In this document: piece by piece, positions 44,332 to 61,896 of the stretch | Position numbering within the stretch: the first letter of the stretch is position 1 | Layout of the letters: each line of letters begins with the position of its first letter | Source of the DNA: Escherichia coli | GTDB taxonomy: Bacteria > Pseudomonadota > Gammaproteobacteria > Enterobacterales > Enterobacteriaceae | Strand: one strand, 5' to 3' | Assembly: GCF_003334355.1 (NCBI RefSeq) | Contig: NZ_QOWP01000007.1 | DNA length: 64,000 nt | Translations under genes and position numbers: made by a program | The notes under the pieces: model-generated | Databases searched by the model: none | What the model saw: only the letters and a program-made list of their open reading frames with translations | Told to the model about the DNA's origin: nothing

Positions 44332-44360
44332 GCGTGTGGTCAGGTTACTGACCACACGCC
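44332..44360. terminator. putative stem-loop between convergent slyB and slyA
   Basis: Hairpin gcgtgtggtcag-gttact-gaccacacgc; no strong U-tract on either strand. Confidence 0.4.
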
Positions 44361-44369
44361 CCCTTCATT

Positions 44370-44810
44370 TCACCCTTTGGCCTGTAACTCAATGATATTA
44401 TGCTCAAGTTTTGCGATGAGCGTAATCAGTTGCTCCAGTTCCTCTGCGGAGATGCCATGTAATATTTCCGCGCGGGTTTTGTTAATAACAGCTTCCATTT
44501 CGCTGATCAGCGGCTCTGCCTTTTCCGTCAGTTTAATACGTTTAGCCCGACGATCGCTGGCACAAGTTTGACGCGAAATTAACCCTTTTTCTTCCAGTTG
44601 GTCCAGAGTACGGACCAGTGATGGCTGCTCGATGCCAATCGCTTTTGCCAGTTGAATTTGCGACTGGTCTGGAGGTAACTGATGGATATTGTGTAACGTA
44701 ACCCAATGGGTTTGTGTTAACTCCAGCGGTTTCAGGCGATGGTCTATCAGAGCACGCCATATGCGCACCAACCGTGCCAGATCAGAACCTAGTGGCGATT
44801 CCAATTTCAT
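44370..44810 (-). CDS. slyA: MarR-family transcriptional regulator SlyA
   Basis: ORF track 146 aa from an ATG ([10 protein letters not shown]...); the start often given for this protein is 2 codons downstream (TTG), so the true start could be 44804. Confidence 0.93.
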
Positions 44811-45013
44811 CTCCTTATAATTAGCTTGCTAAGATATTATGCGGCTTTTAGAATAGTGTGCAGCAATTGTATTGCTAAAACAAATGTATTGCTGCATTTG
44901 GTTACCGTCAGACATATTTTTCAGAAATTGCGCGTAAATTTTTCGCACTTAAAGAATATTTATTAATCTAACGCAATATATTCGGTCGTAAAGGAATCTA
45001 CTTTGTAAAGTTT

Positions 45014-45241
45014 ATGCTCAATGCAACAGGATTGCCCTTACAAGATCTGGTGTTCGGTGCGTCCGTCTACTTTCCTCCGTTTTTCAAAGCCTTCGCGTTT
45101 GGATTCGTCATCTGGCTTGTCGTACACCGCCTGCTTCGTGGCTGGATCTACGCCGGTGACATCTGGCATCCCTTGTTAATGGATTTATCGCTGTTTGCGA
45201 TTTGCGTTTGCCTTGCTCTGGCAATACTGATTGCGTGGTAA
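45014..45241 (+). CDS. ydhI: DUF1656 small inner membrane protein (AaeX paralog)
   Basis: ORF track 75 aa; hydrophobic; start-codon choice is uncertain (I recall the annotated protein as slightly longer). Confidence 0.8.
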
Positions 45242-45243
45242 CT

Positions 45244-46101
45244 ATGTCAATTAAAACAATTAAGTATTTCTCAACAATCATTGTAGCGGTAGTTGCGGTT
45301 CTTGCCGGATGGTGGCTGTGGAATTATTACATGCAATCTCCGTGGACACGCGACGGGAAAATACGCGCAGAACAGGTTTCTATCACCCCACAGGTGTCGG
45401 GACGTATTGTTGAGCTGAATATAAAAGACAACCAGCTGGTTAACGCGGGGGATCTTCTGCTCACGATCGATAAAACGCCCTTTCAGATCGCCGAGCTGAA
45501 CGCACAGGCTCAGCTGGCGAAAGCGCAATCTGACCTCGCAAAAGCCAATAACGAAGCGAATCGTCGTCGTCATCTCTCACAAAATTTTATTTCTGCCGAA
45601 GAACTCGATACCGCTAACCTCAATGTTAAAGCGATGCAGGCCAGTGTTGATGCCGCACAGGCGACGCTGAAACAGGCACAATGGCAACTGGCGCAAACGG
45701 AAATTCGCGCTCCGGTGAGTGGATGGGTGACTAACCTTACTACCCGCATCGGCGATTACGCTGATACCGGGAAACCGCTGTTTGCCCTTGTCGACAGCCA
45801 CTCGTTTTACGTCATTGGTTATTTTGAAGAAACCAAGTTGCGCCATATCCGCGAAGGTGCACCAGCACAAATTACCCTCTATAGTGATAACAAAACGTTA
45901 CACGGTCACGTTTCCAGTATCGGTCGGGCGATTTATGATCAGAGCGTTGAAAGTGACTCAAGCCTTATTCCGGATGTTAAACCTAACGTCCCCTGGGTTC
46001 GACTCGCCCAACGCGTTCCCGTCCGCTTTGCGCTGGATAAAGTCCCAGGCGATGTCACGTTGGTGTCGGGCACCACCTGTAGCATTGCCGTAGGTCAATA
46101 A
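45244..46101 (+). CDS. ydhJ: HlyD-family membrane fusion protein (AaeA paralog)
   Basis: ORF track 45202..46101; recognised start [20 protein letters not shown] is 14 codons in, giving 285 aa; start lies 2 nt after the ydhI stop. Confidence 0.9.
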
Positions 46102-48113
46102 TGAACGCATCGTCATGGTCCTTGCGCAATTTGCCCTGGTTCAGGGCCACGCTGGCGCAATGGCGTTATGCGTTACGCAATACCATTGCCATGTGTCTGG
46201 CGCTGACGGTTGCCTATTATTTAAATCTGGATGAACCCTATTGGGCGATGACCTCGGCTGCAGTGGTTAGCTTTCCCACCGTTGGCGGTGTTATCAGCAA
46301 AAGCCTCGGACGCATCGCTGGCAGTTTGCTCGGAGCCATTGCGGCACTGCTTCTTGCCGGGCATACGCTCAATGAGCCGTGGTTTTTTCTATTGAGCATG
46401 TCGGCGTGGCTTGGCTTTTGTACCTGGGCCTGTGCGCACTTCACGAATAACGTCGCGTATGCATTTCAACTGGCGGGCTACACGGCTGCCATCATCGCCT
46501 TTCCGATGGTTAATATTACTGAGGCCAGCCAGCTGTGGGATATCGCTCAGGCGCGCGTTTGCGAGGTGATTGTCGGCATTTTGTGCGGCGGCATGATGAT
46601 GATGATCCTGCCTAGCAGTTCCGATGCTACAGCCCTTTTAACCGCATTGAAAAACATGCACGCCCGACTACTTGAACATGCCAGTTTACTCTGGCAGCCT
46701 GAAACAACCGATGCCATTCGTGCAGCACATGAAGGGGTGATTGGACAGATACTGACCATGAATTTGCTGCGTATCCAGGCTTTCTGGAGCCACTATCGTT
46801 TTCGCCAGCAAAACGCGCGCCTTAATGCGCTGCTCCACCAGCAATTACGTATGACCAGTGTCATCTCCAGCCTGCGACGTATGTTGCTCAACTGGCCCTC
46901 ACCGCCAGGTGCCACACGAGAAATTCTCGAACAGTTGCTGACGGCGCTCGCCAGTTCGCAAACAGATGTTTACACCGTCGCACGTATTATCGCCCCGCTA
47001 CGCCCGACCAACGTCGCCGACTATCGGCACGTCGCCTTCTGGCAGCGACTACGTTATTTTTGCCACCTTTATCTGCAAAGTAGTCAGGAATTACATCGTC
47101 TGCAAAGCGGTGTAGATGATCATACCAGACTCCCACGGACATCCGGCCTGGCTCGTCATACCGATAACGCCGAAGCTATGTGGAGCGGGCTGCGTACATT
47201 TTGTACGTTGATGATGATTGGCGCATGGAGTATTGCTTCGCAATGGGATGCCGGTGCCAATGCATTAACGCTGGCAGCAATTAGCTGCGTACTCTACTCC
47301 GCCGTCGCAGCACCGTTTAAGTCGTTGTCACTTCTGATGCGCACGCTGGTGTTACTTTCGCTATTCAGCTTTGTGGTCAAATTTGGTCTGATGGTCCAGA
47401 TTAGCGATCTGTGGCAATTTTTACTGTTTCTCTTTCCACTGCTGGCGACAATGCAGCTTCTTAAATTGCAGATGCCAAAATTTGCCGCATTGTGGGGGCA
47501 ACTGATTGTTTTTATGGGTTCTTTTATCGCTGTCACTAATCCCCCGGTGTATGATTTTGCTGATTTTCTTAACGATAATCTGGCAAAAATCGTTGGCGTC
47601 GCGTTGGCGTGGTTAGCGTTCGCCATTCTGCGTCCAGGATCGGATGCTCGTAAAAGCCGCCGCCATATTCGCGCGCTGCGCCGGGATTTTGTCGATCAGC
47701 TAAGCCGCCATCCAACACTGAGTGAAAGCGAATTTGAATCGCTCACTTATCATCACGTCAGTCAGTTGAGTAACAGCCAGGATGCGCTGGCTCGCCGTTG
47801 GTTATTACGCTGGGGTGTAGTGCTGCTGAACTGTTCTCATGTTGTCTGGCAATTGCGCGACTGGGAATCGCGTTCCGATCCGTTATCGCGAGTACGGGAT
47901 AACTGTATTTCACTGTTGCGGGGAGTGATGAGTGAGCGTGGCGTTCAGCAAAAATCACTGGCGGCCACACTTGAAGAATTACAGCGGATTTGCGACAGCC
48001 TTGCCCGTCATCATCAACCTGCCGCCCGTGAGCTGGCGGCAATTGTCTGGCGGCTGTACTGCTCGCTTTCGCAACTTGAGCAAGCACCACCGCAAGGTAC
48101 GCTGGCCTCTTAA
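46101..48113 (+). CDS. ydhK: FUSC/AaeB-family putative efflux transporter
   Basis: ORF track 670 aa; start overlaps the ydhJ stop; matches YdhK. Confidence 0.9.
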
Positions 48114-48635
48114 TTACTTAATTACACCACAGGCATAGCGTTCACCGCCACCGCCCAGCGGTTTAGGTTGATCGGACATATTATCGCCGCCAACGTGGAC
48201 CATCAGCGCTTTGTCTTTGATTTCATCCAGTGATTTCAGACGAGGCGCGATGACGGCATCGGTAGCTTTGCCGTCATTATTGACGACCAGTGCAGGCAGA
48301 TCGCCTAAATGCCCGGCACCTTCTGGCCCTTCATGTTTACCGGTATTTTGTGGATCAAGATGCCCGCCTGCGGATTCCGCGGCGCTGGCTTTGCCATCTT
48401 TGGTGGCTGGCTGGCAGCTTCCTTTGGCATGAATATGGAAGCCATGTTCACCGGGGGGTAATGCTTTCAGATCGGGCGAAAACTCCAGACCTTTATCGGT
48501 TTCAGTAATGGTGACGCTACCAATTGACTGCCCTACCCCTTGCGACGTGACGAGGTTCATCTCGACTTTTTCACTGGCAGCTTGTGCGCCGGTTGCAACA
48601 ACCAGCGCCAGAATAGCCAGACTAAAACGTTTCAT
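48114..48635 (-). CDS. sodC: periplasmic Cu/Zn superoxide dismutase
   Basis: ORF track 48114..48686; recognised start MKRFSLAILALVVATGAQA (signal peptide) is 17 codons in, giving 173 aa; Cu/Zn-SOD motif GGGGERYACGVI. Confidence 0.95.
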   Translation of the reverse strand: MKRFSLAILALVVATGAQAASEKVEMNLVTSQGVGQSIGSVTITETDKGLEFSPDLKALPPGEHGFHIHAKGSCQPATKDGKASAAESAGGHLDPQNTGKHEGPEGAGHLGDLPALVVNNDGKATDAVIAPRLKSLDEIKDKALMVHVGGDNMSDQPKPLGGGGERYACGVIK

Positions 48636-61343: not shown

Positions 61344-61508
61344 GCCTTATCTCCACCTCTTCGCGTCATTACGCGATATTCATTAAAGTGGCGAAAGCAT
61401 GACAGCAATCACAAAAAAATGAAAATAACAAAAAGAGAAAACACTTTTGCCATTTTGCTAACAAACAGGAAGGAGATGCGAGGGAGAACGCGCTCCCTCG
61501 AGAGGAAA

Positions 61509-61598
61509 TCAGTGCAGCGCGGCAGTCAAACCCACGGCTACGATCAAACCGAGGACGATAATCGTTGTTACCAGTGAAAATTTAAGGTCGGTGCTCAT
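61509..61598 (-). CDS. ynhF: small membrane protein YnhF (29 aa)
   Basis: Not in the ORF track (too short); manual minus-strand translation gives MSTDLKFSLVTTIIVLGLIVAVGLTAALH, with RBS ggagaaaa upstream; matches YnhF. Confidence 0.7.
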   Translation of the reverse strand: MSTDLKFSLVTTIIVLGLIVAVGLTAALH

Positions 61599-61836
61599 CA
61601 AGTTTTCTCCTTTTTTATTACCACACAAAAAGTGATATTACGCATTTTTACACACTGTGATGAAAAAATCTCCCGTCATTTATAATGATAAGTGTTTTTA
61701 CCACTTCCCCTTTTCGTCAAGATCGGCCAAAATTCCACGCTTACACTATTTGCGTACTGGCCATTGACCCCTTCCTGACGCTCCGTGTCGTTTTTCCGGC
61801 GTACCGCAACACTTTTGTTGTGCGTAAGGTGTGTAA

Positions 61837-61852
61837 AGGCAAACGTTTACCT
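61837..61852. promoter_or_regulatory. PurR box (autoregulatory operator 1)
   Basis: aggCAAACGTTTacct matches the PurR consensus aCGCAAACGTTTgCGT, in the purR 5' untranslated region. Confidence 0.6.
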
Positions 61853-61896
61853 TGCGATTTTGCAGGAGCTGAAGTTAGGGTCTGGAGTGAAATGGA

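Follow-up and report, generated by a model that had tools for sequence, protein, structure and literature searches.

slyA and ydhIJK of Escherichia coli: a MarR-type regulator gene divergent from an AaeXAB-like efflux operon

What does the divergent pair formed by slyA and the ydhIJK operon do, and how is it controlled? The question is raised by a stretch of 64,000 nucleotides of Escherichia coli DNA (contig NZ_QOWP01000007.1 of assembly GCF_003334355.1; "the window" in what follows), in which slyA, a gene for a MarR-family regulator, is read away from three tightly packed genes, ydhI, ydhJ and ydhK, at positions 44,370 to 48,113. A sequence-only reading of this DNA had proposed that the three genes encode an efflux system resembling AaeXAB and regulated from the shared control region. 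That observation is confirmed and its interpretation is correct, but the locus is an ordinary one: the system itself, the binding of SlyA, repression, the class of inducer and one substrate phenotype are already published. The arrangement is real and conserved, not a chance pattern. The only mildly fresh angle comes from structure prediction, namely the asymmetric two-repeat architecture, similar to plant ALMT anion channels, predicted for YdhK.

Taken as a whole, the explanation that we consider probable is that slyA and ydhIJK constitute a local circuit of the classical MarR type. SlyA dimers would bind a perfect palindrome beside slyA and weaker sites of the TTGCT(AA) type across the 200-bp, AT-rich region between the genes, and would thereby keep expression of slyA and of the divergent ydhIJK operon low. 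Binding of an aromatic carboxylate, for example salicylate or benzoate, would release SlyA from DNA, and envelope stress acting through sigma-E would be a further input in E. coli. The operon would encode an exporter of aromatic and heteroaromatic carboxylates that is paralogous to AaeXAB, fusaric acid being the one demonstrated phenotype. YdhK would serve as the inner-membrane conduit, a single chain of two ALMT-like repeats with anion-binding residues K67, R71 and R152 contributed by the first; YdhJ would be an EmrA/AcrA-like periplasmic adaptor anchored by one transmembrane (TM) helix, and YdhI a two-helix accessory subunit translated immediately before YdhJ, to which it is probably coupled. 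How export is energized, how the substrate crosses the outer membrane, what YdhI does and which substrate is the native one are the parts of this scheme that we infer.

Gene organization and kinship to AaeXAB

The window comes from the E. coli chromosome and shares 99.9% identity with strain HS and many others; the locus reads slyB (+), slyA (-), ydhI, ydhJ and ydhK (+), sodC (-). The slyA gene (44370..44804, minus strand) encodes a 144-residue protein that scores 277 bits with the NCBIfam SlyA equivalog NF002926 (cutoff 120), and a palindrome of the TTAGCAAGCTAA type lies in its own control region. In the RefSeq annotations of E. coli HS and K-12 the gene starts with a TTG at 44804 and ends at 44370, and the UUG start codon is cited in the literature (PMC5797941). 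Open reading frame finders overextend slyA by 6 nt, to an in-frame ATG at 44810 that lies two codons upstream of the TTG. The sequence-only reading had adopted this boundary and had also started ydhI at an ATG at 45014 (75 aa), which gave an intergenic region of 44811..45013; both boundaries need correction. The annotated, conserved start of ydhI is at 45005 (78 aa), and the true intergenic region is 44805..45004, a segment of 200 bp with 32% GC compared to about 50% in the genes.

The first gene of the operon, ydhI (45005..45241, plus strand; 78 aa in other strains), encodes a small protein with two TM helices (Pfam DUF1656, E = 1.8e-14). It is followed by ydhJ (45244..46101, plus strand), whose 285-aa product is a periplasmic adaptor, or membrane fusion protein, according to its Pfam and NCBIfam matches (HlyD_D23, Biotin_lipoyl_2 and HlyD_3 in Pfam; HH_AAEA_pHBA and Beta-barrel_AAEA among precomputed Pfam matches). 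The third gene, ydhK (46101..48113, plus strand), encodes a 670-aa inner-membrane protein of the FUSC / ArAE family (TC 2.A.85), which matches Pfam FUSC (PF04632) over residues 20-661 (E = 4e-140), with further matches to FUSC_2 and, weakly, ArAE_1. The domains originally assigned (DUF1656, HlyD-type adaptor, FUSC/AaeB-type transporter) were therefore called correctly. The same holds for the gene organization: the TAA of ydhI is separated by 2 nt from the ATG of ydhJ, the ydhJ and ydhK genes overlap by 1 nt (TAATG), and the spacer to the divergent slyA gene is 200 bp long.

Database entries of 845 aa and 900 aa (Salmonella) contain YdhJ and YdhK fused, with the adaptor and FUSC Pfam domains both present. 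These are probably the result of single-base frameshifts at the TAATG overlap, and because of them the 285-aa and 670-aa proteins fall into one 90% cluster.

An AaeXAB-type module consists of a full-length two-repeat FUSC protein, an adjacent, co-directional AaeA-type adaptor and, upstream, a DUF1656 protein, and all three are found here. The best NCBIfam matches of YdhI, YdhJ and YdhK are indeed AaeX, AaeA and AaeB, all of them below the equivalog cutoffs (21.3 bits vs 82, 244.7 vs 400 and 120.2 vs 870, respectively). Orthology to AaeX, AaeA and AaeB is ruled out, since the cutoffs are not reached, and the true aaeXAB genes are located elsewhere in the E. coli chromosome. BLASTP comparison with the K-12 AaeX, AaeA and AaeB proteins gives identities of 33%, 41% and 24% (E = 1.5e-5, 6.5e-68 and 5e-27). 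The common gene order, the sub-cutoff scores and these identities together argue that ydhIJK is a paralogue of aaeXAB, in agreement with the proposal that the one mirrors the other.

The slyA-ydhIJK locus is found in all 5426 complete E. coli genomes. For the wider comparison, one genome per species was used, amounting to 80 loci from about 20 genera of Enterobacteriaceae; the query was an alignment of 8 sequences, which returned only orthologues from Enterobacteriaceae. The genes ydhI, ydhJ and ydhK are contiguous in every one of the 80 loci, and slyA is adjacent and divergent in 79, the remaining locus being truncated where its contig stops. On one side the operon is bordered by slyB/slyA and on the other, in 65/80 loci, by sodC. 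The distance between slyB and slyA varies: in Enterobacter, Lelliottia, Klebsiella, Kluyvera and relatives it is about 1.5 kb larger than in Escherichia, Citrobacter and Salmonella. The larger spacing was seen in 4 and about 30 other loci, which suggests that an extra gene is inserted between slyB and slyA in those genera.

SlyA sites, candidate promoters and the ydhI start codon

The intergenic region was searched for SlyA-type palindromes, as the sequence-only reading had recommended, and contains one perfect site and two with three mismatches (none of the sites and repeats described here is assigned a strand). The perfect palindrome, TTAGCAAGCTAA (44821..44832), lies 22 bp upstream of slyA; it is the single zero-mismatch match to the SlyA consensus in the 64-kb window and is kept in 79 of the 80 aligned sequences (the window and 79 species loci). 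The second site, TTATTAATCTAA (TTAGATTAATAA on the other strand; 44960..44971), is a 9/12 match that lies upstream of both genes, 161 bp from slyA and about 40 bp from ydhI; it falls in the half of the region that is not conserved and overlaps a sigma-E-like -10 element. These two are exactly the sites tabulated for PslyA, at 22 and 161 bp upstream, in an earlier study (Table 3 of PMC5797941). The third site, also 9/12 (44867..44878), is held within the first of two direct copies of CAAWTGTATTGCT, which are 13 nt long, 17 bp apart (44864..44893) and were found by a repeat search. The half-site TTGCT(AA) occurs three times in the region, counting the main operator. Sites with three or fewer mismatches number 36 in the window, and 3 of these are in the 200-bp intergenic region compared to an expectation of about 0.1.

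A perfect 9-bp inverted repeat, TGCAGCAAT / ATTGCTGCA (44859..44867 / 44888..44896, arms 20 bp apart), encloses both copies of CAAWTGTATTGCT. It lies in the slyA-proximal conserved block and is lost in Salmonella.

There is substantial published evidence that SlyA acts on this region. Purified E. coli SlyA binds the 200-bp fragment in electrophoretic mobility shift assays (Curran 2017, PMC5797941), an experiment that had been suggested anew from the sequence. For Salmonella, SlyA was shown in vitro to repress slyA 5-fold and ydhI about 19-fold, and 2 mM salicylate relieves the repression (Will 2019, PMC6401476); RNA-seq in Salmonella likewise shows ydhIJK to be SlyA-repressed (PMC12506092). 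The de-repression seen in Klebsiella mutants lacking KvrA, the SlyA orthologue, is huge, with YdhJ protein up 45-fold and over 100-fold (bioRxiv 10.1101/845925). As for physiology, a Salmonella ydhIJK deletion mutant grows more slowly when fusaric acid is present at 30 ug/ml, and growth in fusaric acid is improved in a slyA mutant (PMC6401476), and the level of YdhJ protein in E. coli rises 3.5-fold with vanillin (PMC6561319).

The suggestion of a regulated efflux system is thus borne out by published work, in which SlyA binding and repression, relief by salicylate, and a deletion phenotype with an aromatic acid (the growth delay of the Salmonella mutant in fusaric acid) have all been reported. 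The absence of SlyA binding or regulation, which the sequence-only reading had named as refuting its proposal, is contradicted by these data. The companion statement, that substrate and role are undefined, survives in part. Fusaric acid resistance is known, whereas the physiological substrate was still to be determined in 2025, when the laboratory of the Salmonella work noted that YdhIJK resembles AaeAB and that no clear function had been established (PMC12506092).

Conservation within the control region was assessed from a MAFFT alignment of the 80 regions with a per-column track. The slyA-proximal 85 bp (44805..44890, no strand) are at least 95% conserved in most columns; here lie the Shine-Dalgarno sequence of slyA, the main operator and what are probably elements of the slyA promoter. 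On the ydhI side, approximately 100 bp are essentially unconserved, up to the invariant Shine-Dalgarno sequence of ydhI (AAGGA, 44991..44995, plus strand, 9 nt upstream of 45005; AGGA in 80/80 sequences and the first A in 76/80). The same split was described by Will 2019 (PMC6401476) and has been independently reproduced here.

The positions of the ydhIJK promoters in E. coli can be put forward as candidates, which we infer from consensus matches. A candidate sigma-70 promoter directed toward ydhI (44826..44854, plus strand; TTGCTA, 17 nt, TAGAAT; 9/12) is the sole promoter-like match of the consensus scan. Its -35 hexamer falls within the SlyA palindrome and both hexamers are in the conserved block, and its position disagrees with that of the Salmonella ydhI promoter implied by PMC6401476. 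A candidate sigma-E promoter of ydhIJK (44944..44971, plus strand; CGCACTT, 16 nt, TCTAA; 10/12) is the best match of a crude scan with the consensus class GGAACTT, 16 nt, TCTAA. There are 17 such matches per 64-kb strand, or about 0.05 expected per 200 bp. The predicted start is near 44978, giving a leader of about 27 nt that includes the ydhI Shine-Dalgarno sequence; the candidate shares bases with the second SlyA site and is peculiar to E. coli, with no conservation in other genera. PydhIJK has been listed as a sigma-E transcription start site, with RNA 20-fold up on sigma-E induction (PMC7075262); the published coordinate of that start was not found in Rhodius 2006, in Rhodius 2012 or in the supplements of the 2020 RNA paper.

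A number of observations weigh against the local circuit as the full account of this locus. Deletion of slyA in E. coli K-12 changed no transcripts in chemostats, and over-production of K-12 SlyA raised, not lowered, ydhIJK expression, by 2.2-fold (PMC5797941). The ydhI-proximal half of the control region is unconserved between E. coli and Salmonella. In Salmonella, a SlyA operator of 75% identity has been placed at the inferred ydhI -35 (PMC6401476); this 9/12 operator maps to about 44897..44908 of the window, where E. coli has only 6/12 by hand comparison, and because of this degeneracy the Salmonella results may not transfer directly. No outer-membrane partner is known, and even for AaeAB a recent review lists the partner as unknown ('AaeAB-?'). 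The promoters proposed above are no more than matches to a consensus, and other genera do not conserve the sigma-E-like one. The effect of fusaric acid is a growth delay, not a measured flux, and the ydhI start codon is mutated in this strain (see below), so that the operon may be under-expressed in it. To our knowledge, no transport assay has been reported for YdhJK in any species.

The K-12 data could also be read to mean that SlyA in E. coli, unlike that in Salmonella and Klebsiella, is mainly an anti-H-NS activator of ydhIJK: the AT-rich region would be silenced by H-NS and opened by SlyA, and the operon would be co-induced with slyA instead of being de-repressed by SlyA ligands. The authors of the over-production study did describe a SlyA-activated divergent pair on the basis of the 2.2-fold increase (PMC5797941), the operon was flagged as H-NS-associated in the Oshima data set, the intergenic region has only 32% GC, and its ydhI-proximal half has diverged from that of Salmonella. 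However, 2.2-fold is a small change for a multicopy over-producer, and the slyA deletion was without effect because SlyA was undetectable under those conditions. Furthermore, three independent data sets from two sister genera indicate strong repression, and the main operator with its flanks is nearly identical in E. coli and those genera. An activator role of this kind therefore seems unlikely. The repressor circuit remains the preferred explanation, and would be hard to see in E. coli K-12 because SlyA is barely expressed there.

The mutated start codon deserves separate mention. Position 45007 is an A in the window, which changes the ydhI start from GTG to GTA (45005..45007). The start is GTG in 78/79 other Enterobacteriaceae species and TTG in the remaining one, and the 61-mer surrounding the GTA codon has an exact match in 0/5426 complete E. 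coli genomes. Over 9 kb, GTA variant included, the window and the public E. coli draft assembly GCA_003334355.1 have 100% identity, and for this reason the variant is taken to be real; the idea that the private single-nucleotide polymorphisms (SNPs) are artefacts, or the sequence synthetic, was rejected on the same grounds. The GTA start may lower the translation of YdhI, and through coupling also that of YdhJ and YdhK. The next in-frame start, the ATG at 45014, would yield 75 aa, lies 18 nt from the Shine-Dalgarno sequence and is not conserved. Nonsynonymous differences from E. coli HS and K-12 are YdhJ Q220H (45903) and YdhK R322H (47065), the latter being common to other E. coli lineages. 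Compared to the nearest complete genome, 5 of the 16 SNPs over 24 kb lie in the ydhIJK genes.

One might go further and propose that the operon is already partly disabled in the source lineage, with loss of the GTG cutting YdhI and, via the 2-nt junction, YdhJ and YdhK, and with the module heading to loss. Such decay would fit the restriction of GTA to this sequence against the nearly uniform GTG elsewhere, its presence in independent assemblies, the placement of the invariant Shine-Dalgarno sequence 9 nt from 45005 but 18 nt from the fallback ATG, the 5/16 differences over 24 kb, and the documented finding that Yersinia and plant pathogens have lost ydhIJK repeatedly (Will 2019, PMC6401476). 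On the other hand, the ydhI, ydhJ and ydhK frames are all intact, with no frameshift or stop; the ATG three codons downstream could start a 75-aa YdhI that retains the whole DUF1656 domain (which spans residues 19-70 in the 78-aa protein); ydhJ starts from an ATG of its own; and the SNP enrichment rests on very small numbers. We consider this reading quite unlikely.

The predicted fold of YdhK and the route across the envelope

We know of no experimental structure for any member of the FUSC/ArAE family. An AlphaFold2 model of YdhK was built from an alignment of 90 diverse homologues, which was also the basis of a family profile. The model scores well (pLDDT 93, pTM 0.90) and predicts two tandem repeats, each composed of six TM helices and a helical cytosolic domain. 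When it was compared with the PDB using Foldseek, the top 9 matches were all plant ALMT1 or ALMT9 (probability 1.0), each covering about half of YdhK. The 90-sequence profile, run against PDB sequences, also finds ALMT9, ALMT12 and ALMT1 (E = 4.5e-7 for ALMT9 to 2e-5), and the match spans the pore-forming helices TM2-TM6, including conserved K/R positions. The profile was needed for this result, as a search of PDB sequences with the single YdhK sequence returned only ALMT12 (E = 0.4). Homology of YdhK and the ALMTs is thus supported at the superfamily level.

Two other assignments were considered and rejected. A review table places AaeAB under the major facilitator superfamily (MFS), but Foldseek gives MFS proteins a probability of at most 0.21 with TM-scores of about 0.1, there is no MFS match in Pfam, and no MFS, RND or ABC protein in the PDB matches the YdhK model. 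Membership in the ALMT family proper (PF11744) is also rejected: YdhK has no Pfam ALMT match, and it is a fused two-repeat chain, not a single-repeat homodimer.

The two halves of YdhK are themselves related, with a probability of 95% and E = 1.9e-8 when the N half is aligned to the C half using hhalign. The duplication is visible only in this profile-profile comparison, and BLASTP of one half against the other is not significant (best E = 0.2). The homology of the halves suggests that YdhK is a fused pseudo-dimer of the fold that ALMTs form as homodimers. Residues K67, R71 and R152 align with a conserved lysine and conserved arginines of the ALMTs, and are kept in 89, 89 and 90 of the 90 homologues. 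Their counterparts in the second repeat include no conserved basic residue (N491 is found in 83/90 and D485 in 70/90), and the repeats are therefore asymmetric, with basic pore residues in the N-terminal one only. A relationship between FUSC proteins and ALMTs is not new, having been drawn in a 2023 review of ALMTs and in a 2026 preprint that deals with Rv2571c, a FUSC channel of mycobacteria; no paper was found that ties it to AaeB or YdhK.

The AlphaFold2 model of YdhJ is of moderate quality overall (pLDDT 71), and only its hairpin and domain order were used. It predicts a TM helix (3-31), hairpin helices at 78-109 and 118-150, and then lipoyl and beta-barrel domains. The alpha-hairpin is well predicted and short, about 2x32 residues or about 48 Å, and the model has no membrane-proximal domain. 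The top Foldseek matches are EmrA, AcrA and MacA. No gene for an outer-membrane factor (OMF) was found in or beside the operon: ydhK is followed by the convergent sodC gene and slyA by slyB, and the flanks are the same in most of the 80 loci. The linkage of OMF genes in distant FUSC systems, used for comparison below, was taken from the literature.

These findings invite the view that YdhK is a channel and not a pump. Like the ALMTs and Rv2571c, it would let organic anions follow the membrane potential and would not use proton antiport. YdhJ and YdhI would act as its gate or as a funnel into the periplasm, and the system would have no outer-membrane duct of its own. ALMT anion channels are the only solved structures that resemble the YdhK model, MFS and other carriers reaching at most 0.21; the profile match to ALMT9, ALMT12 and ALMT1 runs over TM2-TM6; K67, R71 and R152 vary hardly or not at all among 90 diverse homologues; and the 2026 preprint makes the case that alpha-ketoglutarate is exported by a FUSC-domain protein working as an ALMT-like channel. 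The lack of a linked OMF gene (the flanks being slyB/slyA and, in 65/80 loci, sodC) and the short YdhJ hairpin of about 2x32 residues, without a membrane-proximal domain, are consistent with such a channel. Fold similarity does not, however, fix the mode of transport, and partnership with an EmrA-like adaptor is a hallmark of trans-envelope pumps. The related FUSC systems FuaABC, Bucl8-FusCDE and MdtNOP carry an OMF gene in the operon, the YdhK repeats are asymmetric, unlike the symmetric ALMT dimer, and there is no electrophysiology for any member of the AaeB/YdhK subfamily. A channel mechanism is accordingly possible but, in our judgement, doubtful.

A broader form of this view, which we offer just as tentatively, is that YdhK and by extension AaeB/FusC-type proteins are asymmetric ALMT-fold pseudo-dimers instead of proton-antiport pumps. 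Aromatic monocarboxylate anions would exit electrophoretically through a pore with one K/R set, from the first repeat, and the DUF1656 protein and short-hairpin adaptor would gate or funnel and not form a TolC bridge. If this were true, the enterobacterial 'metabolic relief valves' would be bacterial cousins of plant malate channels.

Flanking features, significance and comparison with known systems

A GC-rich hairpin lies between the convergent slyB and slyA genes (44332..44359, no strand given; 12 pairs, 8 of them GC, then a T-run on the minus strand), and is likely a bidirectional terminator that ends the slyA transcript. At the other end of the locus, the ydhK stop codon TAA (48111..48113) directly abuts that of the convergent sodC gene (48114..48116), with zero intergenic bases. 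This leaves no space for a terminator, and the two transcripts must overlap or end within each other's coding sequence. An Rfam scan detected no known RNA in or near the slyA-ydhIJK locus. The only Rfam match in the window is the enterobacterial small RNA STnc550 at 61506..61896 (-), which is full-length (396 bits, E = 1e-101).

The locus displays what may be called textbook ancestral MarR logic, a repressor gene beside an efflux operon under its control, and this logic persists in the SlyA/RovA/KvrA lineage, which has since become a master virulence counter-silencer. The present finding makes nothing newly testable, as the literature already reports or outlines the obvious experiments. The residual points (the role of YdhI, the sign of SlyA control in E. 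coli, the substrate, the energy coupling and the route) are likewise acknowledged there. The substrate, energy coupling and outer-membrane route of YdhIJK nonetheless bear on the tolerance of bioproduction strains to aromatic acids, and such questions also bear on which endogenous metabolite SlyA senses and on the whole FUSC/ArAE family.

The closest known system is aaeR-aaeXAB, which has the same order of DUF1656 protein, HlyD-family adaptor and FUSC/ArAE protein, the same tight coupling, a regulator gene that is likewise read divergently, and an operon that lacks an OMF gene. Both systems are concerned with aromatic carboxylates, p-hydroxybenzoic acid (pHBA) and related compounds in the case of AaeAB and fusaric acid in the case of YdhIJK. 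They differ in that the regulator of aaeXAB is the LysR-type activator AaeR, while that of ydhIJK is the MarR-type repressor SlyA, and in that an extra sigma-E input has been reported for ydhIJK.

FuaABC of Stenotrophomonas and Bucl8-FusCDE of Burkholderia similarly combine a FUSC inner-membrane protein with an HlyD-type adaptor and confer fusaric acid resistance. The Burkholderia system also includes a small 'DUF' polypeptide as a fourth component, and its transcripts are induced by pHBA as well. In contrast to ydhIJK, which has no OMF gene and is controlled by SlyA, these systems have their own OMF gene and LysR regulators, and the gene order is OMF, FusC, FusD, FusE.

As a regulatory circuit, the locus is comparable to marR-marAB, emrR-emrAB and the SlyA/RovA/KvrA lineage, in which a winged-helix dimer sits on a palindrome in a shared control region, represses its own gene and is released by aromatic carboxylates; SlyA differs in having additionally become a global H-NS counter-silencer. 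Finally, the fold predicted for each half of YdhK, with its FUSC_2 core and its conserved lysine and arginine in TM3 and arginine in TM6, is like that of the plant channels AtALMT1, AtALMT9 and GmALMT12/QUAC1 and of Rv2571c. Those proteins are homodimers of one repeat, whereas YdhK would consist of two diverged repeats in one chain, with the basic pore residues only in the first and with a periplasmic adaptor and a DUF1656 protein as its partners.

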